Below are positions 12,678-54,399 of a DNA stretch of 64,000 nt, piece by piece. The position numbers were made by a program, and so were the translations under genes. Source of the stretch: Alphaproteobacteria bacterium (GTDB lineage Bacteria; Pseudomonadota; Alphaproteobacteria; CACIAM-22H2); NCBI GenBank assembly GCA_035457725.1, contig DATIBC010000041.1, positions 260-64,259 of the forward strand, in the 5' to 3' direction. The first letter of the stretch is position 1, and each line of letters starts with the position of its first letter. The notes under the pieces were generated by a model. It saw only the letters and a program-made list of their open reading frames with translations, searched no databases and was not told the origin of the DNA.

Positions 12678-12678
12678 T

Positions 12679-14203: not shown

Positions 14204-14236
14204 TCGCCGTCTCCCACGCTGATTGTTAGCACAGAT

Positions 14237-14256
14237 GACAGACAAAAGTGTCTGAC
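14237..14256. promoter_or_regulatory. inverted repeat GACAGACA-AAAG-TGTCTGAC in the carAa/GntR divergent promoter region (candidate GntR operator)
   Basis: 7/8-bp arms with a 4-bp spacer, 35-55 bp upstream of the carAa start codon. GT...AC core typical of GntR/FadR operators. Confidence 0.4.
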
Positions 14257-14475
14257 GATATTGCCCGAGAGTCAAGATCGATACGGCTCTCCGACCCAAG
14301 CTCGACTTCGGACCCGGTGAGGTCCTTGGATGCCAAATTTTGCGCCCGGCATGGCGTCTTTCACCAAGCTTCCTATGGCCCCCTTGTTGTAATATATTGT
14401 CCTGCAATCCAGCCCACGGCGCGGTAATTGCTCTATCTTCGGATTTATCGCGGCGTAAGATCGCAGCGGGTGACC

Positions 14476-15150: not shown

Positions 15151-15172
15151 GTTCGCGCGGCAGCGCCGAAGG

Positions 15173-16174: not shown

Positions 16175-16379
16175 CTCGAGGTCCTCCCGTTTCGCCAGTC
16201 TTTTGACGCCGCTGGCTGAGGCTGCCGGCCTCTGTCGACGCGTACGGGACGATGTCCTTGATCGGCGACAACAATTGCCATACGACTGTATGATGCAATC
16301 TTATCCTACAATAGTAGACTATAGTCAAGCCGGCACCGCCGCAGGCGCGCCCACGGCTGGCAACACATGGAGAAATGCA

Positions 16380-38066: not shown

Positions 38067-38924
38067 TTAACGGAATGCCGCTTCCGCCGTCATCGCATAT
38101 GCGCCGTCGACGCCGGCCGCCCACAGCCGGGCGGATCGGCCGTCCTCGGCTGGAAGCCCGTTCACCGAGAACGGCGCAGTATCGAAGAGCGGACTAACCG
38201 CGCGAAACGCGAAGCGCACGAGGGCTTCGGATGCGACGTGCGTCGTCGCCAAGTCGAGCAGCAACGTGGCGATCAGCGGGCCGTGGACGATGAGCCCCGG
38301 ATATCCCTCGACCTTGGTGACGTAGGGATGGTCGTAGTGGATCCGATGACCATTGAACGTCAGCGCCGAGTAACGGAACAGCAGTACCGGATCGGGTCGT
38401 ATCATCCGCCGCCATGGCGCGCCCACCGGGGCCGGCGATGGTGCCGCGGCGGGGATGCCGGCGCTCGGCGCGGGGCGATAAACGATATCGTGCTCTTCTT
38501 CCAGCGACAGACCGTTCTCGCCGACGACGCGGTGACGGACCAGGACGAAGACGAGTGTACCGCTCTTTCCCTGCTTGACGGTGACGTCGCCGATTTCGGA
38601 TTCGCGCCTTATGCCTTCGCCGACATGAAGCGGCCGCTGGAACATCAACCGCCCTCCCGCCCACATGCGGCGTGGAAGCGGAACCGGCGGCAGGAATCCC
38701 CCGCGCTGGGGGTGGCCGTCGGGCCCAAGCTCGCTCGCTGGCGCCGCCGGATTGAAGAACATCCAGTGCCATCCGAGCGGCAAGACGTCGCCAGCGGCAG
38801 GGGCGCGCTCCTTGTCAAGGGTCGCTGCCATCGCCCGCACGCGATCCACGGCGACGACGTCTTCAGCCGTTTGGGCGCGGCCGATCCATCGCTTGAGCGA
38901 CTCGAGGTCGGCGCCGCCGTTCAT
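38067..38924 (-). CDS. MaoC-like / double hot-dog (R)-specific enoyl-CoA hydratase family protein
   Basis: Two hot-dog halves. Start ATG overlaps the stop of the upstream CoA-transferase (ATGA). Confidence 0.6.
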   Translation of the reverse strand: MNGGADLESLKRWIGRAQTAEDVVAVDRVRAMAATLDKERAPAAGDVLPLGWHWMFFNPAAPASELGPDGHPQRGGFLPPVPLPRRMWAGGRLMFQRPLHVGEGIRRESEIGDVTVKQGKSGTLVFVLVRHRVVGENGLSLEEEHDIVYRPAPSAGIPAAAPSPAPVGAPWRRMIRPDPVLLFRYSALTFNGHRIHYDHPYVTKVEGYPGLIVHGPLIATLLLDLATTHVASEALVRFAFRAVSPLFDTAPFSVNGLPAEDGRSARLWAAGVDGAYAMTAEAAFR

Positions 38925-40042
38925 GCGAACTCGGCGCGAATCTTGGCGCTGTGCTGGCCCAGCGCCGGAACATCGCCCAACGAAGGCGGTACGCCGACGA
39001 TTTGCGCCGGCGGCGCGGGAATGTCGACCGGGCCGTTCTCGGTCTCGACGCGCACCCGCCGCAATTGCGGATGGCGCGAAAAATCCGCCACCGAATTCAC
39101 CTCGCCATAGGCGATCTGGGCAGCGCGCAAGCGGGCAACGAGCTCGTTGCGATCGAGCGCACCGAAGCTCTCCTGGACTAGCGCATCGACCAAGGCGCGG
39201 TTCCTGACGCGCGCCACGTTGTCCTTGAACTCGGCGCGTGCGGCCAGCGAAGCATCGCCCAGAACCTCGGCGCACATATTCGCCCACTCGCGCTCATTCT
39301 GGATCGAGATGACGATCGGCTTGCCGTCCCTGGTCGTGAACACGCCGTAAGGGGCGACCGAGGGATGCGCAAGACCAACCCGATCCGGGGCCTTGCCGAG
39401 ATAATCATGGTGAAGCAACGGCACGGTCATCCACTCCGCCATGCCGTCGAAAAGCGAGACCTTGATCGCGCATCCCTCGCCGGTGCGGTCGCGGCGAATC
39501 AGCGCCTCGAGGATCGCCATGTAGGCGTACATGCCGGCGCCGATGTCGCAAACCGACACCCCGACGCGCCCTGGCCCTTCAGGCCGCCCGGTGACCGCGG
39601 CAAGACCGGACTCGGCTTGGACCAGGAGATCATACGATTTCATCGCTGCGTATGGGCCTTCGTCGCCATATCCCGAGATGTCGCAAGTAATGAGACGCCG
39701 GAACTCTCGCCGCAGGCCGCTCGAGCCGAAGCCAGCGCGGGCCGCCGCTCCCGGAAGCAGGTTTTGGATGAACACGTCGGCCCGCGCGATCATCCGGCGC
39801 AGCAGTGCGGCGTCGGTATCGTTCTTGATGTCGAGGACCAGCGACTCCTTGCCGCGATTGAGCCAGACGAAATAGCTGGCCAGGCCGCGCGCCGCCTGAT
39901 CGTAGCCGCGCGCGAAGTCGCCCTCGCTACGCTCGATCTTGATGACGCGCGCGCCGGCGTCGGCCAACCGCGAGGAACAGTAAGGCGCCGCCACCGCCTG
40001 TTCGAGCGACACCACCAACAATCCGTTGAAGGTGGGCGTCAT
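38921..40042 (-). CDS. family III CoA-transferase (CaiB/BaiF)
   Basis: CaiB/BaiF family signature (GLLVVSLEQAVAAPYCS..LADAGARVIKIE) and conserved Asp region. Confidence 0.8.
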   Translation of the reverse strand: MTPTFNGLLVVSLEQAVAAPYCSSRLADAGARVIKIERSEGDFARGYDQAARGLASYFVWLNRGKESLVLDIKNDTDAALLRRMIARADVFIQNLLPGAAARAGFGSSGLRREFRRLITCDISGYGDEGPYAAMKSYDLLVQAESGLAAVTGRPEGPGRVGVSVCDIGAGMYAYMAILEALIRRDRTGEGCAIKVSLFDGMAEWMTVPLLHHDYLGKAPDRVGLAHPSVAPYGVFTTRDGKPIVISIQNEREWANMCAEVLGDASLAARAEFKDNVARVRNRALVDALVQESFGALDRNELVARLRAAQIAYGEVNSVADFSRHPQLRRVRVETENGPVDIPAPPAQIVGVPPSLGDVPALGQHSAKIRAEFA

Positions 40043-40043
40043 G

Positions 40044-41204
40044 TCAGTAGGAACGCGGCAGGCCGAGCACGTGCTCGGCCAGATAGGAAAGAATCAAATT
40101 GGTCGAGATCGGTGCCACCTGGTAAAGGCGAGCTTCGCGAAACTTGCGCTCGACGTCGTATTCTTCCGCGAAGCCGAACCCGCCATGCGTCTGCAAGCAC
40201 ATATCCGCGGCCTGCCATGAGGCGTCAGCGGCCAGCAACTTCGCCATGTTCGCCTGCGGGCCGCACGGCTGTCCGGAGTCGAACCGCGCGATCGCCTCGC
40301 GAACCATCAGCGCCGCCGCCTCGCGCGCGGCGTAGGCGCGCGCGATCGGAAACTGCACGCCCTGGTTCTGTCCGATCGGTCTACCGAAGACGACACGCGA
40401 CTTGGCGTAGTCGCTCGCCTTGGCGATGAACCAGCTTGCGTCGCCGACGCATTCGGCGGCGATCAGCATCCGCTCGACGTTCATTCCATCGAGAATGTAG
40501 TGGAAGCCCTTGCCCTCCTCGCCGATCAGGTTCTCGGCTGAGATCTCAAGGTTGTCGAAGAAAACCTCGGTCGCAGCGTGATTGATCATGGCGCGGAGCG
40601 GCCGGACGGTGAGCCCCTTGCCGAGCGCCTCGCGCATGTCGACCAGGAACACCGATAGGCCGTCGGTGCGTTTGTTTGCCTTGTCGCGCGGCGTGGTGCG
40701 GGCGAGCAGCAGCATCAAGTCGGAATGCTCGGCGCGGCTGGTCCATACTTTCTGTCCGTTGACGACGTAGCGCCCTCCCTGTCGTACCGCCACCGTCCGA
40801 ATCGCCGTGGTATCGCTTCCCGCGGTCGGTTCGGTGACGCCGAACGCCTGCAGGCGCACCGCTCCCGACGCGATGAGCGGCAGCCAGCGCGATTTTTGTT
40901 CCTGACTTCCGTGCTTGAGCAGCGTCCCCATGGTGTACATTTGGGCATGGCACGCTGCCCCGTTGCCGCCAGCGGCGTGGATCTCCTCGAGAATCGTCGC
41001 CGCTGCGGCGACGCCGAGTCCGCTGCCGCCGAATTCCTCCGGAATCAACACCGCCAGCATGCCGGCGTCGGAGAGCGCCTTGACAAATTCGCTGGGATAG
41101 CGCCGATCGCGATCGAGCGCGCGCCAATACTCGCCCGGGAAGCCGGCGCAAAGCGACCTCACCGATTCGCGGATCTGCGTCAGCTCCTCCCCGTCGTGCG
41201 CCAT
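40044..41204 (-). CDS. acyl-CoA dehydrogenase
   Basis: ACAD N, middle and C domains (GVTEPTAGSD, C-terminal Q..GG.G). 2-nt gap to the CoA-transferase. Confidence 0.85.
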   Translation of the reverse strand: MAHDGEELTQIRESVRSLCAGFPGEYWRALDRDRRYPSEFVKALSDAGMLAVLIPEEFGGSGLGVAAAATILEEIHAAGGNGAACHAQMYTMGTLLKHGSQEQKSRWLPLIASGAVRLQAFGVTEPTAGSDTTAIRTVAVRQGGRYVVNGQKVWTSRAEHSDLMLLLARTTPRDKANKRTDGLSVFLVDMREALGKGLTVRPLRAMINHAATEVFFDNLEISAENLIGEEGKGFHYILDGMNVERMLIAAECVGDASWFIAKASDYAKSRVVFGRPIGQNQGVQFPIARAYAAREAAALMVREAIARFDSGQPCGPQANMAKLLAADASWQAADMCLQTHGGFGFAEEYDVERKFREARLYQVAPISTNLILSYLAEHVLGLPRSY

Positions 41205-41278: not shown

Positions 41279-41962
41279 ATGAGCGTTCGCAGCAATCACC
41301 ACGTGATCCGCGAACTTCTGCCGCTCAAGGGCAGGCGCGTGGTCGATGTCGGCTGTGGCGAGGGCGCATTGACACGATTTCTTGCCGGCGAAGGAGCGCA
41401 TGTCGTCGGCGTCGAACCTGGCCCAGCGACGATCGAAAAGGCCCGCGCCGCGCCGCCGGTCGCCGACGAGGAGTTCGTGGCCGGACTTGGCGAAAAGCTT
41501 CCATTTCCGGATGCGTCGGTCGACGCGGTCGTCTACATGAACGCGCTTCATCATGTTGCTGTCGCCGATCAGGAGGAGGCGGTGCGCGAGGCGGGGCGCG
41601 TGCTCAAGCCCGGCGGGTATTTCTTGGTGGTCGAACCGCTGGCCGAGGGGGATTATTTCGAGCTCGTCCGGACGATCGAGGACGAAACCGAGGTCCGCGC
41701 CGCGGCGTATCGCGCGCTCGGCGCGGCTGAACGCGCCGGGCTGAGCGCGGAACGCGAGTTGGTCTATGATGCCCCGGTCAAGTACGCCGATTTCTCGGCC
41801 TTCGAGGCGCGAATGAAGTCGGTCGACCCGGCGCGGGCACCGACAGTCGATCGATTTCGCGAGGATCTGAAGCGCCGCTTTGCCGCCGCGGGCAAAGCAG
41901 GCGCCGACGGTGTGCATTTTCTCCAGCCGACGCGGGCCAACCTTTTCGTCAAATCGGGCTAG
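41279..41962 (+). CDS. class I SAM-dependent methyltransferase
   Basis: Motif I VVDVGCGEG and motif post-II LKPGGYFLVVE. Confidence 0.75.
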   Translation: MSVRSNHHVIRELLPLKGRRVVDVGCGEGALTRFLAGEGAHVVGVEPGPATIEKARAAPPVADEEFVAGLGEKLPFPDASVDAVVYMNALHHVAVADQEEAVREAGRVLKPGGYFLVVEPLAEGDYFELVRTIEDETEVRAAAYRALGAAERAGLSAERELVYDAPVKYADFSAFEARMKSVDPARAPTVDRFREDLKRRFAAAGKAGADGVHFLQPTRANLFVKSG

Positions 41963-42957
41963 CCGGCGCGACGAACCAGCTCGTCGTAGAGGGCGTCGGG
42001 AATCACCAGGCCGTCGACCGCCGCCTTGGCGCGAAGCTTTAGGCGGCGTTCGCCGGGAAGCCGCGCGCCAGGTTGGGCGAGGATCGCGTTGGCCAATTCG
42101 GCGACGCGTTGAGCGAACCCGTGGCCGACGAATCGGATCGGATCGAAGATGAGGAAGAACTGGCCGACCCGCGGCGGCGGACCCTTGGCGTCGAAGAACG
42201 AGCTAGCCTCGTATCCGAACCGTGCGCCGGTCAGCGCCGCGGCGAGGATCTCGGCCATCAGCACCAATGCATATCCCTTGGCGTCGCCCATCGGCAGCAT
42301 GGTGCCTGCCAACGCCGCTTTGGCGTCGGTCGTCGGGCGGCCCTCGGCGTCGAGCGCCCAGCCTTCTGGAATCGCCTCGCCCTTTTGCGCGGCGACCATG
42401 ATCTTGCCACGCGCGACCTTCGACAGCGATAAATCGATGACCAATGGCGGAGCGCCGCGCCGCGGACAGGCGAAGGCGATTGGATTGGTGCCGAAGATCG
42501 CTCGGCGGCCACCCCAGGGCGCGATGCCCGCGGGCGAGTTGCCAAACACCAGCGCCGCCAGCCCGTCGGCGGCCAGCGGTTCGACATGATAACCGGCGGC
42601 TCCGAAATGATGCGAGTTGGTGACCGCAAGCGCGCACACGCCGGTATCGCGAACCAGTATGCGGGCCTGCGCTAGCCCCAGCGCGATCGCGGGAAAGGCA
42701 AAACCATCCGCTGCATCGACAACGAGAACCGCCGGCGCGGTCTGTCGCAGCGTCGGCGACGCCCTGCCATCGACCTTGCCGGCCACGGCCTGATCGGCGT
42801 ACGCGGGAACGCGCGACAGGCCGTGACCGGCGAGTCCGTCGGCCTCGGCGGCGACGAGCGCGCGGGCGACCGCTTCGGCGTTCTCGACCGTGGCGCCGGC
42901 GGCAACGAGCGCTCGCACCGCTAGGCCATGCGCCCGGACGAGCGACAACGCCGTCAT
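41959..42957 (-). CDS. Ldh family-2 (malate/L-lactate/sulfolactate dehydrogenase, ComC-like) oxidoreductase
   Basis: Ldh_2 family blocks (NSHHFGAAGY, GTNPIAFA). Start ATG overlaps the upstream stop (ATGA). Confidence 0.7.
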   Translation of the reverse strand: MTALSLVRAHGLAVRALVAAGATVENAEAVARALVAAEADGLAGHGLSRVPAYADQAVAGKVDGRASPTLRQTAPAVLVVDAADGFAFPAIALGLAQARILVRDTGVCALAVTNSHHFGAAGYHVEPLAADGLAALVFGNSPAGIAPWGGRRAIFGTNPIAFACPRRGAPPLVIDLSLSKVARGKIMVAAQKGEAIPEGWALDAEGRPTTDAKAALAGTMLPMGDAKGYALVLMAEILAAALTGARFGYEASSFFDAKGPPPRVGQFFLIFDPIRFVGHGFAQRVAELANAILAQPGARLPGERRLKLRAKAAVDGLVIPDALYDELVRRAG

Positions 42958-43907
42958 CGGCCACGCTCGGTGAGCGCCTTGCGGACATTCGCTACCGTCA
43001 TAGACGACACCCGGCGATTGGCTTCCTCGGTTACCCCGGCGATGTGCGGCGTCAGCCACAGCCGCGGCGCGCCGACGAAGATCGAGGCCTTGGCCAGAGG
43101 TTCGCTCGCGAACACGTCGAGCACGGCACCGCCGAGTCTGCCCTCCCTGAGCGCCGCGACAAGCGCCGCCTCGTCGACGGTGCCGCCACGCGACGTATTG
43201 ATCAGGATCGCGCCCGGTTTCATCCGCGCCAGCGCCGCGCGATCGACCAAATTGCGGGTCGAAGGCAGCAACGGTACATGCATGCTGACGACGTCGCTGG
43301 TGGCGAGCAACGTCGCAAGGTCGATCGGCGTCGACCCGAGCTCGCGCCACGCCGGATGATCGGCCGAAACGCCAGGATCGTGGGCGACGATCTCGAGCTC
43401 GAAGCCGCGGGCGCGTCGCGCCACGGCGCGCGCGATCTCGCCGAACCCGATCAAGCCGAGGCGCTTGCCGCTCGCTTCGCGAAACATGAGCTCGTTACGC
43501 GGCCATTTCCCCGCCACCACCGCCTCGCTGGCATGCCACACGTCGCGCAACCCGATAAGCATGGCGGCAATGACGTATTCCGCCACCGAGGCCGTGTTGG
43601 CGCCCGAGGCGGGAAAGACGCGGATGCCCCGCCGCGTGCACTCGTCCATGTCGATATTGTCGAGCCCGACGCCGAGACGCCCGATGACCTTGAGTTGCCG
43701 GCACGCCGTGAGCACGTCGCCGCGCACTTGGGTGCGGTTGCGCACGATCAGCGCTGGAACCTCGGCGGCGAGCGCCATGATCTCGCCCGGCTTATCGACC
43801 AATTCGGGATCGTAATAAACGCGAAAATCGCGCGCGAGATCGTCGACCGCCCATGCATCGATGAACTCGGTGATGACGATGTCATGCATGACGGACCGGG
43901 GCCTCAT
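42954..43907 (-). CDS. D-isomer-specific 2-hydroxyacid dehydrogenase (NAD-binding)
   Basis: GLIGFGEIARAVA Rossmann motif and catalytic R/E/H arrangement. Alternative start at 43889. Confidence 0.75.
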   Translation of the reverse strand: MRPRSVMHDIVITEFIDAWAVDDLARDFRVYYDPELVDKPGEIMALAAEVPALIVRNRTQVRGDVLTACRQLKVIGRLGVGLDNIDMDECTRRGIRVFPASGANTASVAEYVIAAMLIGLRDVWHASEAVVAGKWPRNELMFREASGKRLGLIGFGEIARAVARRARGFELEIVAHDPGVSADHPAWRELGSTPIDLATLLATSDVVSMHVPLLPSTRNLVDRAALARMKPGAILINTSRGGTVDEAALVAALREGRLGGAVLDVFASEPLAKASIFVGAPRLWLTPHIAGVTEEANRRVSSMTVANVRKALTERGR

Positions 43908-43989: not shown

Positions 43990-45714
43990 TCAGTCCGCGG
44001 CGGCGTCGCGCAGCAGCGTTTCGCCGGGCCGCACGCGCGTGAAGGCTACCGGCCGCATCTCGACGGAAGGATTGCTCCCGCTCATCTTGACGCAGGTATA
44101 AGTCGAGGTTGCAAGGTCCGATGTTGTTGGAAAGTCGTTGCGATAATGCGCGCCGCGCGAATCCTCGCGCGCCAGCGCCGCGGCGGCGATGGCACGGCTC
44201 ACCAGGATCAGGTTCTTGAGGTTGAGCCAATCGTGCCAGGTGAGATTGAACGCGAGCCCGTCGTCGGCCACGCCGATGGCGTCGAGCTCGGCATCGAGCG
44301 CTTCCAGCCTGTCGATGGCCCGCTTGAGTCCGCCGGCATCGCGCGCGATGCCGACCTCCTCCCACATGAGGTCGTGCAACGCCTCGCGCACCGCCTCGAC
44401 ATCGCCAGCGCCGCGCGTGAGCGGCGCGCGGGCGCTCTGGACCGCCTTCTCGATGGCCGCTTCGTCGGCCGCCCGCAGGCGCCCCTTCTCGGCGATCCAT
44501 TTCGCCATTGCGTCACCGGCGATGGCGCCGAAGACAGTTGAATTGGCGACCCCGTTGCCGCCAAGCCGATTGGCACCGTGGACTCCGCCTGTGTCCTCGC
44601 CGGCGGCGAACAGGCCGGGCAACTCCGTGGCGCACGATAGGTCGAAGATCACGCCGCCCATCATGTAATGCGCTGTCGGGACCACCTCGACGCGGCCGGC
44701 GGCGAGGTCGAAACCGCAGTCGGCGCAGCGCTCGACCATGCCCTTGAACTCCTTCCGCACGCGCTCGGCGCCGAGATGCGCCATCTGCAAGTACACGCCG
44801 CCCAGTTTCGTGCCGCCGCCCCGGCGAATCTGGTCGAAGATGGCGCGGCTCACCACGTCGCGGGTCGCGCGTTCGGCCCGCGGATCGTAGGCGGTCATGA
44901 ACCGCTCGCCGTTGCGGTCGAGCAGATGGCCGCCTGCGCCGCGCAGGCCCTCCTCGAGAACTGTGCCGGTCATGCGCGTGTCCGGCCCGGCTAGCAGGCC
45001 GGTGGGATGGAATTGCACCATCTCCATGTCGCGCAGCATCAGGCCGGCGCGTAGCGACATGGCCATGCCGTCGCACGATTTGTCGCCCGACGGCGTATGG
45101 TACTTGTACATCGTCGGACCGCCGCCGGTGGCGAGTAGCACGGCCTTCGCCTCGACGAAAACGAAGCTGCCGCCGCGCATGTCGATGAACAACGCCCCGG
45201 ATATCGCCTCGCCCGTCTCGCTTCTGATCAGTTCGATCGCGCGGTGATCTTCGAGACGGACGATGCCGCGCGCCCAAACCTGCTCGGCCAACCGATTGAC
45301 AATTTCGATTCCCGTCAGGTCGCCCTTGTGAACGGTGCGATCGAAGCTCTGACCGGCGAAAGCCTTCTGGTGAATCGTCCCGTCGGGATTGCGGTCGAAG
45401 AAGCAGCCGAATTCGTTCTCGAGCTCGCGGACCCGAGATTGGGCGCCGGTGACCAGCGCCCAGGCGAGATCCTGATCGTTGAGCCACTGCCCGCCCTCGA
45501 TCGTATCCATGAAATGGCGTTCGACCGAATCGCCCGGCGCCAGTGCCACGTTGTAGCCGCCCTGGACCATCCGCGTGCAGCCGCTCTTGCCGAGCAGGCC
45601 CTTGACGGCAATCGTGATCTTGAGCGCCGGGTCGGCTTGCAGCGCGTGCAGCGCGGCGAAAAGGCCCGCACCGCCGCTACCAAGGATAAGCATGTCGGTG
45701 ACAAGGCGCTTCAC
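43990..45714 (-). CDS. FAD-dependent flavoprotein of the succinate dehydrogenase / fumarate reductase / L-aspartate oxidase family
   Basis: FAD motif ILGSGGAGLFAA, active-site HPTG, C-terminal RLGGNGVANS.VFG. The covalent-FAD His position reads KSGCT (non-covalent type). GTG start overlapping the upstream stop (GTGA). Confidence 0.75.
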   Translation of the reverse strand: MKRLVTDMLILGSGGAGLFAALHALQADPALKITIAVKGLLGKSGCTRMVQGGYNVALAPGDSVERHFMDTIEGGQWLNDQDLAWALVTGAQSRVRELENEFGCFFDRNPDGTIHQKAFAGQSFDRTVHKGDLTGIEIVNRLAEQVWARGIVRLEDHRAIELIRSETGEAISGALFIDMRGGSFVFVEAKAVLLATGGGPTMYKYHTPSGDKSCDGMAMSLRAGLMLRDMEMVQFHPTGLLAGPDTRMTGTVLEEGLRGAGGHLLDRNGERFMTAYDPRAERATRDVVSRAIFDQIRRGGGTKLGGVYLQMAHLGAERVRKEFKGMVERCADCGFDLAAGRVEVVPTAHYMMGGVIFDLSCATELPGLFAAGEDTGGVHGANRLGGNGVANSTVFGAIAGDAMAKWIAEKGRLRAADEAAIEKAVQSARAPLTRGAGDVEAVREALHDLMWEEVGIARDAGGLKRAIDRLEALDAELDAIGVADDGLAFNLTWHDWLNLKNLILVSRAIAAAALAREDSRGAHYRNDFPTTSDLATSTYTCVKMSGSNPSVEMRPVAFTRVRPGETLLRDAAAD

Positions 45715-46322
45715 GCGCGAACGCCCATTTTCGCCAGCGCCGCAGCGCGCCGGCGTTGCGCGGCGGCCTTGACCGTCTCGTAGAGGCTGCCGCCGTGCGC
45801 ATCCATTGCGACAAGCAGCGGGCCGAACTCCTTGACCCGGAATTTCCACAGGCTTTCCGGATTGAGGTCATCGAGATCGACGTCGTCGATCGCATCGATC
45901 CACGTCGTCTCGAGCGCCGCGGTGCCGCCGATGACGGCGAGATAAGCGCCGCCGAAGCGAGCGAACGCCTCGGCCGATTCGGACCCCAGCCCGCCCTTGC
46001 CGATGACCAGCCGTACGCCGTACTGCGCCATCAGCGGACGCGTGAACCGCTCCATACGGGCGCTGGTCGTCGTTCCGACGCACACCGGTGCGTAGCCGGC
46101 AGGGTGGGCGGCCGACGTTTCGACCTTGCGAACGTTCGGCGCGGTGTGAATGACGGCGTGTCCGCGGAGTTCGAAGCGCGTCTTGCGGCCGCGATCGAAC
46201 ATGTGGATCAAGGTGGCGTCGCGGATTCCGAAAAGCGCGCCGTTCAGCGTCACGGTATCGTTTACCCTGAGCGCGCGCACCTCGGCCTCATCGAGCGGCG
46301 TGGCCAAATCGTGATGCGGCAT
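45711..46322 (-). CDS. Fe-S hydro-lyase beta subunit (class I fumarate hydratase / L(+)-tartrate dehydratase TtdB-like)
   Basis: 203 aa. TtdB/FumB C-terminal-domain-like (GKGG..., LVAMDAHGGSLY). Confidence 0.7.
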   Translation of the reverse strand: MPHHDLATPLDEAEVRALRVNDTVTLNGALFGIRDATLIHMFDRGRKTRFELRGHAVIHTAPNVRKVETSAAHPAGYAPVCVGTTTSARMERFTRPLMAQYGVRLVIGKGGLGSESAEAFARFGGAYLAVIGGTAALETTWIDAIDDVDLDDLNPESLWKFRVKEFGPLLVAMDAHGGSLYETVKAAAQRRRAAALAKMGVRA

Positions 46323-46325
46323 CGC

Positions 46326-47216
46326 TCAGAACCCGATTTCGACGCCTCGCGGCGTGAACAGCGCACTGGCACGGCGCGCCGAGTGGCATTGGATGTTGAC
46401 CGCGACTGGATTCATCGTGATATGCGTCGCCGCAAGCTCGACATGCACCGCGAACGCCGTGGCATCGCCGCCAAGACCCTGCGGTCCGATGCCCAGCCCG
46501 TTGACCGCCTCGCTCAGCATGCGCTCCAGCCTCGCCCCTTCGGCGTCGGCGCACACCGAGCCCAATGGTCGGGTCGACGCAACCTTGGCCAGGTGCATGC
46601 ACAGGTCGGACGTGCCGCCCACGCCCACGCCGACGATGGTCGGCGGACAGACCTTGCCTCCGGCCTCCATCACCTTGTCAATGACGAAGGTCTTGATTCC
46701 GTCGGCGCCGTCGGCCGGCACCAGCATCTTCAAGAACGATCCGTTCTCCGAGCCCGAGCCTTTCGGGATCATCTCCAGCCGCAACTCCCGCGGCCGGTCG
46801 GAGAAATCGATGTTGATCACCGGAACGCCCGGCCCGCAGCTCGTATGCGCGTTCGCGCGGGTCAACGGATGAACCACCGACGAGCGAAGCGGATAATCGC
46901 GCGTCGCCCGTTCCACGCCGCGACGGATCGCCTCTTTGAGCTGGGCCCCGTCAACCTCGACGTCGCGGCCGATCGTCACGTTGAAGATTGGGATTCCGGT
47001 GTCCTGGCACAACAAGTTGTCGGTCTTCTCGGCGACCTCGATGTTGCGCACCATCGTCGCCAGGATGGTCTTGGCGGTGGCGTCGGTTTCCGCGGCATCG
47101 AGGCGCGCGAAACCGTGCTTGACGTCGTCCGGGAGCAGCTTGAGCGCGCGGATGTATAGGAGCTTGGCGGTCTCCTCGATCGTCGACGGATCGACGCGAA
47201 GCCGCGCCGGGTTCAT
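46326..47216 (-). CDS. Fe-S hydro-lyase alpha subunit (class I fumarate hydratase / TtdA-like)
   Basis: CQDTG motif plus downstream Cys ligands. C-terminal LGIGPQGLGG block as in TtdA/FumA N-domain. ~297 aa. ATG overlaps the permease stop (ATGA). 5' ORF extension rejected. Confidence 0.7.
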   Translation of the reverse strand: MNPARLRVDPSTIEETAKLLYIRALKLLPDDVKHGFARLDAAETDATAKTILATMVRNIEVAEKTDNLLCQDTGIPIFNVTIGRDVEVDGAQLKEAIRRGVERATRDYPLRSSVVHPLTRANAHTSCGPGVPVINIDFSDRPRELRLEMIPKGSGSENGSFLKMLVPADGADGIKTFVIDKVMEAGGKVCPPTIVGVGVGGTSDLCMHLAKVASTRPLGSVCADAEGARLERMLSEAVNGLGIGPQGLGGDATAFAVHVELAATHITMNPVAVNIQCHSARRASALFTPRGVEIGF

Positions 47217-48103
47217 CGTTGCATGCCCCATTTGCGAACCGTATGCGTCTCGACCGTGCGGAACACCACGCTTTCGACCAGCAGGCCGATGATGATCACC
47301 GCGGTAAGCCCGGCGAAGACATACGCCGTTTCGAGCTGATTGCGGTTCTCGAAGATGAACCAGCCAAGCCCGCCCGAGCGCGACGAGACTCCGAACACCA
47401 GTTCGGCGGCGATGAGCGTGCGCCAAGCGAACGCCCAACCGATCTTGAGGCCGGCGAGGATCGAGGGAAAGGCGGCCGGAATCAGGATTTGAGCCACGTA
47501 GCGAATCCCTCGCAAGCCGTAATTCTGCCCCGCCATGCGCTGCGCCTCGGCGACGGCGAGGAAACCGGTATGCGTGTTGAGCGCCACCGCCCAGAGCACC
47601 GAGTGGATGATGACGAATACCAGGCTCGGGATGCCGAGGCCGAACCAAAGCAGCGCCAGCGGCAACAACGCAATCGCCGGCAACGGGTTGAACATCGCCG
47701 TCAGGGTCGACAGAAGATCGGTGCCGATGCGCGTCGAGACGGCAAGCGCGGTGAACACCGCAGCGAGGAAGATCCCGGCCGCGTAGCCCATGGTGAGAAC
47801 CTGGATCGACGTCCACACGCGCTCGAGCAACGGCCCACGCACGCTGGCGTCCCACAGCGACCAGATGGTCTCGCTGAACGAAGGGAACATCAGCGGATTG
47901 TTGATCGACCGCGAATAGCTTTCCCACAGTATCGTCAACAGCACGAGAATGAACGCGCGCCGCACAGCGGTGATGTTGGTCAGCCGCTCCCACGCCGAAA
48001 GCGGCAGCTCGACGGCGGCGATATTGGCGGCACCGACATTTTCGCGGACGAATTCCGGCCGCACCGGCGGCGACGACCGGGCGGCGGCGCTTGCCTCAGC
48101 CAT
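47213..48103 (-). CDS. ABC transporter permease (NitT/TauT family)
   Basis: Six-TM BPD_transp_1 permease with EAA-like loop. Start trimmed to a Met just upstream of the ATPase stop. Confidence 0.7.
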   Translation of the reverse strand: MAEASAAARSSPPVRPEFVRENVGAANIAAVELPLSAWERLTNITAVRRAFILVLLTILWESYSRSINNPLMFPSFSETIWSLWDASVRGPLLERVWTSIQVLTMGYAAGIFLAAVFTALAVSTRIGTDLLSTLTAMFNPLPAIALLPLALLWFGLGIPSLVFVIIHSVLWAVALNTHTGFLAVAEAQRMAGQNYGLRGIRYVAQILIPAAFPSILAGLKIGWAFAWRTLIAAELVFGVSSRSGGLGWFIFENRNQLETAYVFAGLTAVIIIGLLVESVVFRTVETHTVRKWGMQR

Positions 48104-48938
48104 GAACCTTCGACTCCTCTTCGATGCGCTCGGCGAACAGCATCGCGTGGATGCGGTTCTGGAGCGACATGAAACCCTCTCCTCCCTGCTGTGCATGGCC
48201 GAATTGATGCGCATTGAGCTCGGCACGCACGCGGCCTGGATGCGGACTCATCACAAGGATCCGCGACCCAATGACGATCGCCTCTTCGATCGAATGGGTG
48301 ACGAACAAGACGGTGAAGCGAATCTCGTCCCAAAGCTGCAGCAGCTCTTCCTGCATCTTGCGGCGCGTCAGTGCGTCGAGCGCCGCGAAGGGCTCGTCCA
48401 TCAGCAGGATATCGGGTTCCATGGCCATGGCGCGCGCGATCGCCACGCGCTGCTTCATGCCCCCCGAGAGCATGTGCGGATGGATATCGGAGAACTGGGT
48501 GAGATTGACCTTGTCGATATACGTTCGCGCGCGGGCCTCGGCCTCGCGGCGCGGATATTTTCCCGAGACGAGCATCGGAAACATCACGTTCTGCTCGACC
48601 GTTTTCCACGGCAGGAGTTGGTCGAACTCCTGGAACACCATCATGCGATCGGGCCCCGGCCGTTCGACCGGACGCCCGGCGAGACGTATCGTGCCCTCGA
48701 CCGGTTTCATGAACCCGGCGACGCCCTTGAGCAGCGTCGACTTGCCGCAGCCGGACGGACCGAGAAGGACGAAACGGTCCGCAGGATGGACCCGGAAACT
48801 TACCCGGTAGGTCGCGGTGACGAGATGATCGCGGGTCTTGTACTGCAGTGTGACGCCGTCGACCTCGAGCAATGGCGCCGCGGAATCCGTCGCCGCCGCG
48901 CCATTGCCGCCCGTTCCCGTCGCACTGGCGTCGGCCAT
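48096..48938 (-). CDS. ABC transporter ATP-binding protein (NitT/TauT family)
   Basis: Walker A GPSGCGKST, signature LSGGMKQR, Walker B ILLMDEPFAALD. Confidence 0.8.
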   Translation of the reverse strand: MADASATGTGGNGAAATDSAAPLLEVDGVTLQYKTRDHLVTATYRVSFRVHPADRFVLLGPSGCGKSTLLKGVAGFMKPVEGTIRLAGRPVERPGPDRMMVFQEFDQLLPWKTVEQNVMFPMLVSGKYPRREAEARARTYIDKVNLTQFSDIHPHMLSGGMKQRVAIARAMAMEPDILLMDEPFAALDALTRRKMQEELLQLWDEIRFTVLFVTHSIEEAIVIGSRILVMSPHPGRVRAELNAHQFGHAQQGGEGFMSLQNRIHAMLFAERIEEESKVHG

Positions 48939-49960
48939 CAGCTGCCCAGTTTTTCGTGAACCTCGGGGAAGAACAAATCCTTCCACGAGTCCGGCTTGAC
49001 CTTGATCGAACCGACCCTGGACATGAACTCGACGTATTTCATGACGTTGTTCGGCGTGAGTGTGAAAACATTTTCGGGGTCCTTGAGGATCTTCTCGACG
49101 AACTGCACCGGCAGCCTTGAATTCTCGGCCTTGACCCAAAGCTCCGCCGCGCGTCTCCGGTCGGAGTTGATGAAGATCATGGCCTCTTCGAGCGCGTCGA
49201 GAACCGCGCGATAGGTGCGCGGGTTCTCGTCGTGGAATTTCTGCGTCGTCCAGACCAGGTTGAACGTCGCCGGTCCGCCGAGCACCTCATAGGAGCTGAC
49301 TACGCGGCGGACGCGCTGGTCCTCGAGTTGCTGATACTGGAAGGGGGCGCTGGAAAAGTGCGCCGTGATCTCCGAGCGCCCCGACATCATCGCGCTCATC
49401 CCGTCGGGATGCGCCATCGACACGGTGAGTTTGTCGAGCACGTCGTGCTTGCCTGGCCCGAATTCCTTCTCGGCCGCCATCTGCAGCGTCACGGCCTGGA
49501 TCGATACCTTGACGGCGGGAAGCGCGATACGATCCTTGTCGGTGAAATCCTTGAGCGATGTCACGTCGGGATTGATCGTGTTGAGGTAAATCGGCATCGA
49601 GTTGATCGCCGAAATCGCCTTGACGTTGAGGTTGCCCTTGGTGCGCGCCCAGATCGTCACCAGCGGCCCGACGCCGCCCGCGGCGACGTCGAGGCTGCCG
49701 GACAGCAGCGCATCGTTCATCGGAGCGCCGGCCGAGAGCCGGCTCCACTCGACTTTGATGTCGCCAAGTCCCGACGATTTTGCGTGCTTCTCGATGAGCT
49801 TCCGCTCCTCGATCACCGTCAACGGCAGGTAGCTGACGCCGAACTGCTTGGCGATGCGGAGTTCCTTCGTCTCCTGCGCGGCGGCTTGACCGACGGTGAA
49901 CGCGAGCGCCAAGACGCCGCCCGAAAGCGCAACAGCGCGAAGGGTCCGAAGCAATGTCAT
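48938..49960 (-). CDS. periplasmic substrate-binding protein of NitT/TauT (sulfonate/nitrate/taurine-type, NMT1-like) ABC transporter
   Basis: Signal peptide and NMT1/SsuA-like fold. First gene of the transporter trio. Confidence 0.7.
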   Translation of the reverse strand: MTLLRTLRAVALSGGVLALAFTVGQAAAQETKELRIAKQFGVSYLPLTVIEERKLIEKHAKSSGLGDIKVEWSRLSAGAPMNDALLSGSLDVAAGGVGPLVTIWARTKGNLNVKAISAINSMPIYLNTINPDVTSLKDFTDKDRIALPAVKVSIQAVTLQMAAEKEFGPGKHDVLDKLTVSMAHPDGMSAMMSGRSEITAHFSSAPFQYQQLEDQRVRRVVSSYEVLGGPATFNLVWTTQKFHDENPRTYRAVLDALEEAMIFINSDRRRAAELWVKAENSRLPVQFVEKILKDPENVFTLTPNNVMKYVEFMSRVGSIKVKPDSWKDLFFPEVHEKLGS

Positions 49961-50053: not shown

Positions 50054-50779
50054 TCAGATGACCAGGGCGACGCCCGAGAACATGAGCAACCACAAGACGA
50101 TGCGGCGGAATTGCGCGTCGTCGACGCGGGCATAGGCCCGCGTGCCCAGCCACAGGCCGAGAGCCAGCGCCGGCAGGGTCGGGAGGAACAGCCATGCGGC
50201 CTCGCGCGTCACGCCGCCGGTGCCACCGAGCCAGGCAAGCGCCAGGAACTGCATCGCCACGATGTAAGGCTGGTAGACGCCGCGCTGCTCGTCCTTGGGC
50301 CAGCCCCGCAGTCCGCACCAGATCGTCGGGATCGCACCGGACAGTCCGGCGAGCCCACCCATTAGCCCGCCGACAAGGCCGATCGCGCCGTCGGCCGCAC
50401 GACCTCCAAAATCCAGCGGCGCCGGCTGCGGCCGCAGCAGCATGTAGCCGCTATAGGCGACCAGGAACACACCGACGCCGAAACGGAACGCCCCGGGATC
50501 GGCGATGCGCAACAGCTCGACCCCGAACGGCACGCCGAGCGCGCCGCCAACCAAAAACGGCCATAACCGGCGCCAGCGAATAGCGTGGCGGAGCGCCGGC
50601 AAAGTAGCGAATTGCGACAGGATACTGCCGGCAAGAATGACCGGCACCGCCTCGATCGGCGGCAGGACGTTGAGCAGCACTCCCGAGGCGACGAGGGCGA
50701 ACGCGAAGCCGGCAAGGCCCGAGGCGAACGCGGCGAGGAAAGCGCCGACAGCGATCGCCAGTCCCACGGCAAGCGTCAC
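50054..50779 (-). CDS. TauE/SafE family (DUF81) membrane exporter, SuyZ-like putative sulfite exporter
   Basis: Multi-TM Gly-rich DUF81 repeats. Start placed at a GTG just after the SdhC-like stop; the ORF may extend to 50863. Confidence 0.6.
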   Translation of the reverse strand: MTLAVGLAIAVGAFLAAFASGLAGFAFALVASGVLLNVLPPIEAVPVILAGSILSQFATLPALRHAIRWRRLWPFLVGGALGVPFGVELLRIADPGAFRFGVGVFLVAYSGYMLLRPQPAPLDFGGRAADGAIGLVGGLMGGLAGLSGAIPTIWCGLRGWPKDEQRGVYQPYIVAMQFLALAWLGGTGGVTREAAWLFLPTLPALALGLWLGTRAYARVDDAQFRRIVLWLLMFSGVALVI

Positions 50780-51156
50780 GCGGGGCTCGTCAGGTTGAGG
50801 AGAAACAGAAGGCCGACGGCGACGCCGAATCCCATGGCAAGCGCCGCCATCGTTTTTTGCCAATCCCGCCAGGCGAGGAACTCGATGGCCAATACGCGGA
50901 GTCCGCCGGCGAGATGGACGGCAAGGAGGATCACCAACCCGGTCTCGATGAGTTTGACCAGCGGCCGTTCCGACCAGCGAAGAAAGCCGTCAAGCGCCGC
51001 CTCCCCCTGCAGTGCCTGGCCAAGCGCCCAAAAATGCGCCGGCAGAAAAAAGGCGAGAAGCACTCCTGACATACGATGCACCAAGAATGCGACATAGTTT
51101 GCGTGCGCGCGGCCACGCCACGCCGACACGACGTGTCCGGCTTTCACAGCTTTCAT
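50776..51156 (-). CDS. succinate-dehydrogenase-type membrane anchor subunit (SdhC-like, cytochrome b)
   Basis: Three TM helices, HRxSG motif (LVHRMSGVLLAF), His in second helix. Confidence 0.6.
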   Translation of the reverse strand: MKAVKAGHVVSAWRGRAHANYVAFLVHRMSGVLLAFFLPAHFWALGQALQGEAALDGFLRWSERPLVKLIETGLVILLAVHLAGGLRVLAIEFLAWRDWQKTMAALAMGFGVAVGLLFLLNLTSPA

Positions 51157-51506
51157 GAGAAGAGTCCGCCGACGGCGCGCCAGCCGAGCCAAGCGAGCGA
51201 TAGCGCCGTGGCCAGGGTCGCGACGTCGAGCGAACGTCCGCGCCAGAGGGTCATTTCGCGAACGATGGCGCGCAGCCCCAATGGCGCGTGGATCGCCACC
51301 GCGAGCACGAAGATCGAATAGAAAGCGAGCCAGCCAAAGCTACCGCGCGTGCGGCCGAGAATCTCCGCGGCGCTGAGGCCCCCGCGCACCGCGAGTACGA
51401 CGGTCGCCAGATGAACCACGACGCAAACCGCCAACACCAGCGCGCTCGCCCGCTGCCCGAGCCACAGCCAAGTTTCGTGCTTTACCGAGACGTCGGTCGA
51501 GCGCAT
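51153..51506 (-). CDS. succinate-dehydrogenase-type membrane anchor subunit (SdhD-like)
   Basis: 118 aa, three TM helices with conserved His (AIHAPLGLR). 4-nt overlap with the SdhC-like gene. Confidence 0.55.
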   Translation of the reverse strand: MRSTDVSVKHETWLWLGQRASALVLAVCVVVHLATVVLAVRGGLSAAEILGRTRGSFGWLAFYSIFVLAVAIHAPLGLRAIVREMTLWRGRSLDVATLATALSLAWLGWRAVGGLFS

Positions 51507-51517
51507 CGCATGGGCTT

Positions 51518-52240
51518 CTACAGCGCGCCCTTGATCGCCGCACGCGCCACTCGGCGCTTCAAGCCGGCGATCGAAGCCGTAGGATTGAGCTGCTTCGGGC
51601 AGTATTCGCGGCACCCCTGCTGACTGTGGCAAGCATGACAACCGGCGTCGCCTGCGACCGCGCCGAGGCGTTCGGCTTGCGCTCCATCGCGAACGTCGTT
51701 GACCAGCGTCCATGCGCGATTGAGCGCGGCCGGTCCCAGGTAATCGGCATTCCAGCGCACGACATCACATGCCGCGTAGCAGACGCCGCAGCCGATGCAT
51801 TCGATCGCCGCATCAGCGGCGGCGCGGTCGTTGGCCGATGGCGGCACCAAGGCGAAGTCGTCCGATCGCGATGCGGCGGGTGAGAAAACCCCCTTGGCGC
51901 GCGTCCATTTCTCGAAGAATTCGGTCATGTCGCAGACGAGATCCTTGATCACCGGAAAATTCCGCAATGGCGCCACGGTCAGCCGGCCGCCCCGTGTCGC
52001 CTTGTCGACATGGGTGCGGCAAGTCCAACGCGGCCGCCCGTTGACGGTCATGGCGCATGATCCGCACATGCCGACCCGGCAAGCGAAGCGATAGCTCAGC
52101 GTGCGATCGAGATGCCGTTGGACCCAGGTGACCACGTCGAGCACTGTCTGGCTTGGCCGCCGCGGCACCACGTACTCGACGAATCGGCCTTCGCTACCGC
52201 CTCGCCAGACCGACACCTGCAATGTCGCTTGCGCGCTCAA
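51518..52240 (-). CDS. succinate dehydrogenase / fumarate reductase iron-sulfur subunit (SdhB/FrdB-like)
   Basis: 2Fe-2S motif CRVGMCGSCAM. 4Fe-4S and 3Fe-4S motifs CIGCGVCYAAC...CHACHSQQGCREYCP. Confidence 0.85.
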   Translation of the reverse strand: MSAQATLQVSVWRGGSEGRFVEYVVPRRPSQTVLDVVTWVQRHLDRTLSYRFACRVGMCGSCAMTVNGRPRWTCRTHVDKATRGGRLTVAPLRNFPVIKDLVCDMTEFFEKWTRAKGVFSPAASRSDDFALVPPSANDRAAADAAIECIGCGVCYAACDVVRWNADYLGPAALNRAWTLVNDVRDGAQAERLGAVAGDAGCHACHSQQGCREYCPKQLNPTASIAGLKRRVARAAIKGAL

Positions 52241-52286: not shown

Positions 52287-53495
52287 TCAGGCGCTCTGGA
52301 AGAGCTTGGTCAGCACGAACTCGCGATGGCCAAGCGCCTCGGCGGCGGTCAGCCGGCCGTTGCATGTGCGGATCATGATGTCGATCAGCCGGTCTCCGGC
52401 CTCGTCCAGCGTCATTTCGCGCCGCAGTATCCCTGAGACGTCGAGGTCGATGTGCTCGCTCATCTCGCGTGCGGTTTTCGGATTGGCGGTCAGCTTGATC
52501 ACGGGTTCGATCGGATTGCCGATCACGTTGCCCTGTCCGGTCGGGAAGAGGTGGACGACGAATCCCGCCGCGGCCTGCAGGGTCACGCACTCTGCAGCGG
52601 CGGAAGACGTGTCCATGAAGTAAAGGCCGGGCCCCTTGCCGGGCGATTGCGCCGGCTTGAGGACGTCGATGTATTTCGTTTTCTTGCCGATCTTGGCCAG
52701 GTTGCCGAACGCCTTTTCCTCGATGGTCGTAAGGCCGCCGGCGATGTTGCCCTTGGTCGGCTGCGATTCCGAAAGATCGTTGGTCTTGTGCCGCTCGATC
52801 ATTGCGTTGTAGGCCCGCCATGTGGCGAGGAACTTCTCGCCAATATCCTTGGTTATGCCGCGGCTGGCGCAGACCTTCTCGGCGCCGGTAATCTCGGAAG
52901 TTTCGCCAAAACAGGTGGTGGCGCCGAGCGGATCGATCTTGTCGATGAGATCGCCGACCGTCGGGCACGAGGCGAGACCCGAGGTGGTGTCGCTTTCGCC
53001 GCATTTCGTCGAAACCCACAGCTCGTCGATGCGGCACGGCTCGCGCTGCAACTCGCTCGCCCAATGTAGAAAATCCTTCGCCGCGCGCGAGGCGTCGGCG
53101 ATCGTCTTGAGATCGCCCTTGCCCTCGATGGCGAACCCTGCCACCGGCTTGCCGGTCTTCTTAATTCCATCGACGACGCGGCCCGTCCAGCCCGGCTCGA
53201 TGCCGATAACGACGCACGCGGCGACGTTCGGGCTAGCGCCGGTGCCGATGAGCGTGCGGAAATGAAGTTCGAGGTCCTCGCCGAATTGCAGTCGACCGTA
53301 AGCATGCGGCAGCGCCAGGACGCCCTTGATATTGTTGCCCACGGCCTCGGCGGCGGCGTTCGACAGATCGTCGAGCGGCAGGACGATCACGTGATTGCGC
53401 ACGCCGACGCGGCCGTTGGCGCGCCGGTATCCTTGGAAAGCAAGGTCGCGGCCGTTCGCGCGACGCTTGGCAGGCGCTTTCGCCATGGCTACCAC
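52287..53495 (-). CDS. UxaA-family dehydratase large subunit, (2R)-sulfolactate sulfo-lyase SuyB-like
   Basis: ~400 aa altronate/galactarate-dehydratase C-domain homologue lacking its own SAF domain. Size and split architecture match SuyB (~42 kDa). Confidence 0.6.
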
Positions 53496-53773
53496 CTTTT
53501 GGTCTTGACGTTGTGGACGTGGGCATGCCGGCCCTTGCCGATCGCCGATACGGCGCGGCCGATGTCGTGACCGTACTTGAGCAGCGTCTCGCCCTTCTTG
53601 ATCTCCTTGAGGGCGATTTTGTGGCCGAGCGGAATCGCGTCCAGCGCCTTGAGCCTCACGGTGGAATCGCCCTCCATCACCCAGCCGGTGAGCGCGTCGC
53701 CGGGCTTTATGCCTTCGACGACGACCACGCCCACTGTGTCGGCTTTGTCGTGCACGATAAAATGAGTGGTCAT
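53489..53773 (-). CDS. SAF-domain small subunit of split UxaA-family dehydratase, SuyA-like
   Basis: 94 aa SAF/AFP-like domain (GD.L...M.G...V.L...I..GHKIALK.I..G). Overlaps the large-subunit start. Confidence 0.55.
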
Positions 53774-54327: not shown

Positions 54328-54399
54328 ATGGGTTGCCGCGCCTCGGCGGCGCGGCCTATAGTCCTGCCCGCCCGTCAACCGCCACGGATCCGCCACCAC

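Follow-up and report, generated by a model that had tools for sequence, protein, structure and literature searches.

A fumarate hydratase-type iron-sulfur hydro-lyase in a sulfolactate operon: a candidate 3-sulfoacrylate hydratase for the degradation of 3-sulfopropanoate

The stretch of DNA analysed here, referred to throughout as the window, comprises 64 kb of an alphaproteobacterial contig (DATIBC010000041.1) with a GC content of about 65%, and our subject is a pair of genes within it that encode both subunits, alpha and beta, of a class I iron-sulfur (Fe-S) hydro-lyase, for which we propose a role as a 3-sulfoacrylate hydratase. Since the window is GC-rich, most of its long open reading frames (ORFs) are spurious, and the real genes were picked by codon-position GC together with domain searches. 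The alpha/beta pair belongs to an operon, a single run of minus-strand genes extending from about 53773 down to 41959 (Table 1). A sequence-only reading of the window had placed a two-subunit class I hydro-lyase at 45711-47216, between an ATP-binding cassette (ABC) importer and an SdhA-like gene and downstream of genes resembling succinate:quinone reductase; these coordinates proved exact, the domains PF05681 and PF05683 were found in the two subunits, and the gene layout bears out the position. The alpha and beta genes are translationally coupled to the upstream permease gene and the downstream SdhA-like gene: the permease stop and the alpha start overlap as ATGA, three nucleotides separate the alpha stop from the beta start, and the beta stop overlaps the GTG start of the SdhA-like gene as GTGA. 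An alternative ATG for alpha at 47231 would give a protein of 301 instead of 296 residues.

Table 1. Genes of the operon that holds the alpha/beta pair, in order of transcription, and the gene that closes it (window positions; aa, amino acids)
Feature	Position	Strand	Remarks
SuyA	53489-53773	-	94 aa; GD_AH domains found for SuyA/SuyB
SuyB	52287-53486	-	399 aa; assigned as (2R)-sulfolactate sulfo-lyase orthologue
SdhB-like iron-sulfur subunit	51518-52240	-	240 aa; Fer2_3 and Fer4; TIGR00384, 191.6 against cut-off 88
SdhD-like membrane anchor	51153-51506	-	PF01127; TIGR02968/TIGR02970 matches across the two anchors
SdhC-like membrane anchor	50776-51147	-	PF01127; TIGR02968/TIGR02970 matches across the two anchors
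TauE/SafE-family sulfite exporter	50054-50779	-	PF01925, E=1.5e-31
ABC solute-binding protein, NitT/TauT-type importer	48938-49960	-	NMT1_2
ABC ATPase, NitT/TauT-type importer	48096-48938	-	ABC_tran
ABC permease, NitT/TauT-type importer	47213-48103	-	BPD_transp_1
Hydro-lyase alpha subunit	46326-47216	-	296 aa; PF05681, E=1e-88
Hydro-lyase beta subunit	45711-46322	-	203 aa; PF05683, E=2.5e-30
SdhA/FrdA/NadB-like flavoprotein	43990-45714	-	574 aa; GTG start; PF00890 and PF02910
D-isomer-specific 2-hydroxyacid dehydrogenase (2-HADH)	42954-43889	-	PF02826 and PF00389
Ldh_2 family dehydrogenase	41959-42957	-	PF02615
Methyltransferase	41279-41962	+	Opposite strand to the operon, which it closes

A sequence search of the PDB returned the two-subunit fumarate hydratase (FH) of M. 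jannaschii (MjFH, 7XKY) as the closest solved structure for both subunits, with E-values of 1.6e-70 for alpha and 2.6e-29 for beta. The cluster ligands and the list of active-site residues of MjFH were taken from its published description (bioRxiv 10.1101/2022.09.03.506457). The CQDTG motif noticed in the sequence-only reading corresponds to residues 70-74 of alpha, and the cluster cysteines C70, C190 and C277 of alpha align with C60, C182 and C269 of MjFH. The substrate-binding and catalytic residues Q71, D72, R111 and H265 are likewise present in alpha together with a KGXGS loop (K152-G-S-G155-S156), while R34, T85, T86, R89 and K109 of beta are the counterparts of R32, T80, T81, R84 and K104 of MjFH beta, so that all ten known substrate and catalytic residues of FH are kept in the window pair. 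Class I FH has all active-site residues in common with L(+)-tartrate dehydratase (L-TTD), but the two are told apart by a proximal loop, which reads KGXGS in the former and AGGGC in the latter, and are opposite in stereospecificity, with only (S)-malate accepted by MjFH (Bellur et al., bioRxiv 10.1101/2023.06.17.545066). In the active-site comparison with characterised FH and TtdAB enzymes that had been proposed in the sequence-only reading, all FH residues are kept and the loop is of the FH type, reading KGSGS at alpha 152-156 in the window and in every family member examined. Alpha is 45% identical to MjFH alpha as against 34% to E. coli TtdA, and for beta the identities are 37% with MjFH beta and 39% with E. 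coli TtdB. With NCBIfam models, the pair exceeded the cut-offs of TIGR00722 and TIGR00723, the latter a broad model that beta passed narrowly (145.5 against 145.15) and the only one it passed, since beta fell below the cut-offs of all equivalog models; the TtdA model NF006084 gave 184 bits against a cut-off of 365 and the TtdB model NF006082 gave 149 against 264. Taken together, the loop, the identities and the model scores assign the pair as a two-subunit class I Fe-S hydro-lyase of the FH type and not of the L-TTD type.

Within the class I Fe-S hydro-lyases, clustering and residue signatures place the pair in a tight and distinct family. When 1.84 billion representatives of clusters made at 50% identity were scanned in full, one close full-length cluster was found (74% identity), the next lay at 53% and 49%, and a continuum followed at 46% or below. 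When 75 alpha and 83 beta sequences of the family were compared with MjFH, A. fulgidus FH beta, Leishmania FH, E. coli FumA and TtdAB, fixed differences from all of these references were found in alpha (P68L, N126S, E180D, A267T, S268M, and SA for AD in C-x-A-D-R) and in beta (A37T, G61A, S81C, P84T, S141W and G154N). The beta change P84T directly precedes the catalytic Thr pair, and signature changes also adjoin the third cluster Cys; beta G61A, alpha N126S and the alpha motifs THIT[MQ]N and QCHSARR likewise neighbour active-site residues. When 100 diverse representatives were compared, NLLCQDT, H[TS]S[CT]G, THIT[MQ]N and QCHSARR occurred together only in the window's family. The copy in Rhodococcus jostii RHA1 is only 49-54% identical, yet it has GTTTS.RM, HTAP and THISMN, and this retention of the signature despite low identity argues for functional constraint. 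The signature positions appear to be second-shell ones, and as such are compatible with a changed substrate while giving no proof of one.

The flavoprotein encoded directly downstream is 34% identical to E. coli SdhA and fell below every NCBIfam cut-off, including those for SdhA, FrdA and NadB, its best match being the methanogen fumarate reductase TfrA (531 bits against 718). Alignment of 64 family sequences with E. coli SdhA showed that the dicarboxylate-site residues His242, Glu255, Arg286, His354 and Arg399 (E. coli numbering) are kept, while in all 64 the His45 that links flavin adenine dinucleotide (FAD) is replaced by Cys (GCTRMVQGG) and the catalytic-loop Thr254 by Glu (LEEGLRG). The same two changes are found in the Rhodococcus copy (locus L097, 15283-16968), and a copy of the flavoprotein also lies at 13326-15026 of locus L096. 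Both membrane anchors, aligned with E. coli SdhC and SdhD, keep the haem-ligand His. The Cys and Glu replacements argue against an ordinary succinate dehydrogenase; the invariant Cys could mean either non-covalent FAD or a Cys-linked flavin, and we propose that the protein is the dehydrogenase subunit of a complex acting on 3-sulfopropanoate.

The operon opens with genes that would tie it to sulfonates. As NCBIfam holds no SuyB model, and the window SuyB matches in it only galactarate dehydratase, far under the cut-off, the identity of SuyB was settled through plasmid records. It is 68.0% identical to the SuyB adjoining hpsN-hpsO (sulfopropanediol dehydrogenases) on a plasmid of Cupriavidus pinatubonensis and 68.9% identical to that of a GntR-SuyA-SuyB-sulfate-exporter cluster on pTAV3 of Paracoccus versutus, all remaining UxaA-family matches in the plasmid records being below 40%. 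The division into a small and a large subunit and the loss of a conserved Cys set are peculiar to SuyAB within the UxaA/GarD superfamily (PMC6336799); the window proteins are split in this way (94 and 399 residues), and in SuyB three of the four Cys positions conserved in UxaA are not Cys. Close homologues carry the Joint Genome Institute (JGI) label '(2R)-sulfolactate sulfo-lyase subunit beta'. By these comparisons the window SuyAB are orthologues of the (2R)-sulfolactate sulfo-lyase of known clusters, and the combination of SlcC/ComC, SuyAB and TauE is an established system for sulfolactate mineralisation (PMC12421959). The best NCBIfam matches of the ABC importer were of the TauB, TauC, SsuA and SaoP types, all below cut-off, and no relative of its solute-binding protein was found among solved structures at E<=0.001. 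Ldh_2 matched L-sulfolactate dehydrogenase best among the NCBIfam models, its 195 bits falling short of the cut-off of 500. The 2-HADH and Ldh_2 enzymes are candidates for an SlcC/ComC-like pair acting on sulfolactate and sulfopyruvate.

A homologue scan of the GTDB species genomes returned at least 339 relatives, of which the best 80 were examined. These show 69-88% identity and come from Alpha-, Beta- and Gammaproteobacteria, among them Paraburkholderia tuberum STM678, Paraburkholderia sp. C35 and Thioalkalivibrio denitrificans ALJD, most hosts of the 80 loci being Burkholderiales and other mainly aerobic Proteobacteria; close homologues of beta are also very numerous in metagenomes. Gene content was surveyed by tblastn with the window proteins at 40 loci having at least 8 kb on each side. 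FumA-like and SdhA-like genes were each found at 39 of the 40 loci, SdhB at 35, the SdhC and SdhD anchors at 34 and 35, and both SuyAB (SuyA and SuyB alike) and Ldh_2 at 31, while D-2-HADH was present at 15. Some transporter was encoded at 36 of the 40, its type being TctC (21 loci), ABC components (12-16) or TRAP (tripartite ATP-independent periplasmic; 4-5), and TauE was found at ten. The typical order is SuyA-SuyB-SdhB-anchor-anchor-[transport]-FumA-FumB-SdhA-[dehydrogenases], and the conservation of this core while the transporter type is swapped is what a single catabolic pathway serving a single imported anion would be expected to show. Plasmid pMRAD01 of Methylobacterium radiotolerans JCM 2831 bears the complete module as annotated genes. 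In R. jostii RHA1, plasmid pRHL1 (L097; 792877-797630 and 815882-817302 of the record) carries a FumA/FumB/SdhA/SdhB-like set of 41-54% identity, 22 kb from SuyAB (64% identity), a 2-HADH and an Ldh_2 gene. At some loci the 2-HADH is replaced by a split thiamine pyrophosphate (TPP) enzyme (2/40), which comes nearest, though under threshold, to ComD and ComE, the subunits of sulfopyruvate decarboxylase.

Two further features of these loci may be recorded. A full-length TPP enzyme of about 540 residues recurs at 11 of the 40 (for example L072, 12344-13957, and L096, 11693-13297); among the NCBIfam models it matches 2-hydroxyacyl-CoA lyase and acetolactate synthase best and Xsc less well, none of them reaching its cut-off, and it might be a candidate for acting on sulfopyruvate or sulfoacetaldehyde. 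Three loci of one betaproteobacterial lineage (L004, L005 and L006) have small genes inserted in the operon (at about 5644-6178, 9424-9996 and 10664-11313), namely a DUF433/DUF5615 pair between SuyB and SdhB, a chalcone-isomerase-like ORF that separates alpha from beta, and an 85-residue ORF with a PIN-domain toxin between beta and SdhA.

While family membership, active-site residues, operon structure and conserved synteny are directly observed, we infer the substrate of the alpha/beta reaction, from gene context, as well as its direction and stereochemistry. An Sdh-like complex and a fumarase-like hydratase inside a sulfolactate operon are most simply explained if the substrate is the sulfonate isostere of succinate, and we consider it probable, though far from certain, that the pair acts as a 3-sulfoacrylate hydratase (or, named for the reverse reaction, a (2R)-3-sulfolactate hydro-lyase) of a 3-sulfopropanoate pathway. 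An FH-type hydro-lyase would thereby have been recruited into a route that copies the succinate-fumarate-malate steps of the tricarboxylic acid cycle on sulfo-analogues. In this scheme the ABC system, or in other loci a tripartite tricarboxylate transporter or TRAP carrier, would import 3-sulfopropanoate, which the SdhA/B/C/D-like membrane complex would oxidise to (E)-3-sulfoacrylate. The alpha/beta enzyme would hydrate the latter to (2R)-3-sulfolactate, the L-form analogous to (S)-malate, with the carboxylate and the C2 hydroxyl bound to the cluster's unique iron while the sulfonate sits in the Arg/Arg/Gln clamp that holds C4 of malate. SuyAB would then split (2R)-3-sulfolactate into pyruvate and sulfite, the sulfite would leave through TauE, and the two dehydrogenases would interconvert the sulfolactate enantiomers via sulfopyruvate or open a sulfopyruvate branch. 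The stereochemistry is consistent with the scheme, since an FH-type enzyme yields an L-hydroxy acid and L-sulfolactate is (2R) by the Cahn-Ingold-Prelog rules, which fits the substrate of SuyAB; (2R)-sulfolactate is the substrate both of SuyAB and of L-sulfolactate dehydrogenase.

The sequence-only reading had already suggested a hydratase for an unsaturated sulfonated or substituted dicarboxylate, with 3-sulfoacrylate listed as one of the compounds to assay. Synteny and SuyB orthology speak for the sulfonated analogue, but the substrate is more likely a sulfo-monocarboxylate than a dicarboxylate. Its further suggestion of a 2-hydroxy acid product passed on to the dehydrogenases and the SuyAB-like lyase agrees with the linkage of SuyAB and Ldh_2 found in the census. 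We give even chances to a wider reading, in which the operon would be a complete route for the mineralisation of 3-sulfopropanoate, extending to homotaurine, 3-hydroxypropanesulfonate and other C3 sulfonates derived from sulfoquinovose. The route would consist of a membrane 3-sulfopropanoate:quinone oxidoreductase, possibly with a Cys-linked flavin, the Fe-S 3-sulfoacrylate hydratase and SuyAB, and would be widespread in Proteobacteria of soil and water and occur also in Rhodococcus. Homotaurine is one source of 3-sulfopropanoate and, in anoxic habitats, 2,3-dihydroxypropane-1-sulfonate (DHPS) derived from sulfoquinovose is another. A Konstanz thesis, as cited by Chen et al. 2024 (PMC11489063), gives the sequence homotaurine, 3-sulfopropanoate, sulfoacrylate, sulfolactate for Roseovarius nubinhibens; apart from it, bacterial degradation of 3-sulfopropanoate was unreported as of 2024 (Chen et al., PMC11489063), and a 2026 review calls the mechanism in Bilophila wadsworthia unclear. 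A gene-level description of the steps from 3-sulfopropanoate via sulfoacrylate to sulfolactate was not found in the literature searched.

Several observations count against the proposed function. First-shell differences that would mark a sulfonate site were sought and none was found, every known FH contact residue being conserved, and because true fumarases have the very same first-shell residues the sequence leaves room for fumarate and malate as substrates. Alpha scores above the NCBIfam equivalog NF004885 'fumarate hydratase' (309 bits against a cut-off of 276). SuyAB is absent within 10 kb at nine of the 40 loci, and conversely contigs labelled Acidoferrales and Limnocylindrales (L092 and L093, 9714-11167) have SuyAB of 83-85% identity but no Fum or Sdh genes, which makes SuyAB a mobile unit in itself. 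Compared with its relatives in the PDB, the window Ldh_2 is no nearer to the M. jannaschii sulfolactate dehydrogenase than to other Ldh_2 enzymes. R. nubinhibens ISM is not among the best 80 of the at least 339 loci, although no dedicated search of ISM was made. Finally, the missing covalent-FAD His in the SdhA-like protein could, by analogy, point to a reductive role, loss of covalent FAD in E. coli FrdA abolishing succinate oxidation.

This last point leads to a pathway running in reverse, in which sulfolactate would be dehydrated to 3-sulfoacrylate and the Sdh-like complex would act as a quinol:sulfoacrylate reductase, with 3-sulfopropanoate as electron sink. The Cys and Glu changes are compatible with either direction of electron flow, hence this alternative; the scheme parallels the malate-fumarate-succinate branch of fumarate respiration, the class I hydratase reaction runs freely in both directions, the flavoprotein has a methanogen fumarate reductase as its best match, and non-covalent fumarate reductases and NadB likewise do without the His. 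We nevertheless think it unlikely, since importers, SuyAB and a sulfite exporter stand together as in a catabolic route of desulfonation, flavin could be attached to the invariant Cys that takes the place of the His, most hosts are Burkholderiales and other mainly aerobic Proteobacteria, and the anchors, two subunits with a haem His, are of the SdhCD type, which is typical of ubiquinone-linked succinate dehydrogenases.

Equally unlikely, in our estimate, is an ordinary fumarase, forming with the Sdh-like complex an auxiliary succinate-fumarate-malate module that does no more than accompany the sulfolactate genes. The retention of the FH active-site residues and KGXGS loop, together with the alpha score on NF004885, would suit such an enzyme, and malate dehydrogenases are found among the Ldh_2 enzymes. 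Beta, however, lies under every fumarase equivalog cut-off (129 against 269 for NF004708, 97 against 244 for NF006253 and 86 against 238 for NF005310), the pair falls in a tight cluster of its own, distinguished by signature residues near the active site, and the flavoprotein coupled to it differs from all SdhA, FrdA and NadB proteins at two hallmark positions. The linkage to SuyAB moreover persists across phyla and transporter swaps, and why a succinate module should lie within a desulfonation operon is not obvious.

A little less likely again is another substituted fumarate analogue produced by the Sdh-like complex, such as sulfofumarate derived from sulfosuccinate, or one derived from a sulfonated or alkylated succinate, the product of which would be desulfonated by the SuyAB-like lyase. 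The gene context fixes the chemistry (desaturation, hydration and elimination of sulfite) and not the exact carbon skeleton, and the TctC, DctA-like and TRAP carriers of some loci are typical of di- and tricarboxylates. Against this stand the close orthology of SuyB (68-69%) to the SuyB of C3 sulfolactate clusters, the ComDE-like sulfopyruvate decarboxylase genes of some loci, which point to C3 intermediates, and the consideration that sulfosuccinate could presumably lose sulfite directly, without an oxidation step. Lastly, the L(+)-tartrate dehydratase TtdAB, which the sequence-only reading took as its main alternative, was rejected as highly improbable: JGI calls beta homologues 'L(+)-tartrate dehydratase beta subunit' and beta is about equally identical to TtdB and to MjFH beta, but the loop is not the AGGGC of all L-TTDs, the NCBIfam TtdA and TtdB cut-offs were failed, alpha is nearer to MjFH, and the gene context differs, neither ttdT nor ttdR being found nearby in the window.

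As for the surroundings of the operon, an acyl-CoA (coenzyme A) dehydrogenase, a family III CoA-transferase and a hotdog (Htd2/MaoC-like) hydratase are encoded on the minus strand at 38067-41204. These were set aside as pathway members because the opposite-strand methyltransferase gene intervenes and only four to five alphaproteobacterial loci have them (they are conserved there in L001, L014, L043, L059 and L022, none reaching an NCBIfam cut-off); they could represent a CoA-dependent route for a related acid. Divergent from the operon at its other end lies a plus-strand gamma-glutamyltranspeptidase gene (54328-56250), found in the same place in L001, L008 and L043. There is no regulator gene between it and suyA in the window, and L001 has a GntR/UTRA regulator there. 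Further away, the window carries on the plus strand at 24736-27545 genes for a malate synthase (609-residue ORF), an HpcH/HpaI-type aldolase or citrate-lyase-beta-like protein and an adenylate cyclase-TPR protein, and on the minus strand at 10988-16300 an aromatic-degradation cluster with a LigB-type extradiol dioxygenase, a Rieske ring hydroxylase, an alpha/beta hydrolase and a MetA-pathway outer-membrane protein. In the Acidoferrales- and Limnocylindrales-labelled contigs L092 and L093, SuyAB is accompanied by a GntR regulator and by divergent GFO/IDH/MocA oxidoreductase, creatininase-like, cupin, 2-HADH and SDF symporter genes, and the degree of SuyAB conservation across phyla that these contigs display is striking.

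If the alpha/beta pair is indeed a 3-sulfoacrylate hydratase, its family would supply a missing aerobic sink for 3-sulfopropanoate, sulfonates would be a new substrate class for the class I Fe-S fumarase family, and a relative of complex II tuned to a sulfonate would be revealed. The routine annotations 'L(+)-tartrate dehydratase' and 'fumarate hydratase' on these proteins would be corrected accordingly. Since the module is present in the culturable strains M. radiotolerans JCM 2831, P. tuberum STM678, T. denitrificans ALJD and R. jostii RHA1, the proposal is directly testable, and a stated gap in sulfonate cycling with it.

Among known systems, E. coli TtdAB resembles the window pair as a two-subunit bacterial Fe-S hydro-lyase of the same superfamily, but differs in its AGGGC loop, its opposite stereospecificity and its neighbours ttdR and ttdT. 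The archaeal two-subunit class I FH (MjFH, 7XKY; A. fulgidus beta, 2ISB) have the same fold, subunit split, cluster cysteines, active-site residues and KGXGS loop, and from the likeness to MjFH the window pair is expected to bind the carboxylate and hydroxyl on the unique iron and to use Thr as base and Asp as acid. Unlike them, the window pair is bacterial and lies in a sulfonate-degradation operon rather than serving central metabolism, its proposed substrate is 3-sulfoacrylate and not fumarate, and its family is a separate cluster with changes adjoining the catalytic Thr pair and the third cluster Cys.

E. coli SdhCDAB together with fumarase offers a second parallel, namely a flavoprotein, an Fe-S subunit and two anchors that carry a haem His, after which comes a hydratase, with the dicarboxylate-site residues kept; in contrast to the E. 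coli arrangement, the window order is split, B-D-C being followed by transport genes and the hydratase and only then by A. A parallel in gene content is the SlcC/ComC-SuyAB-TauE module of Chromohalobacter salexigens, Paracoccus spp. and C. pinatubonensis, which has SuyA, SuyB, TauE, D-2-HADH and Ldh_2 in common with the window operon. While the known SuyAB modules are devoid of fumarase-like or Sdh-like genes, the window operon has them between SuyAB and the dehydrogenases, an insertion presumed to add an upstream feeder pathway.

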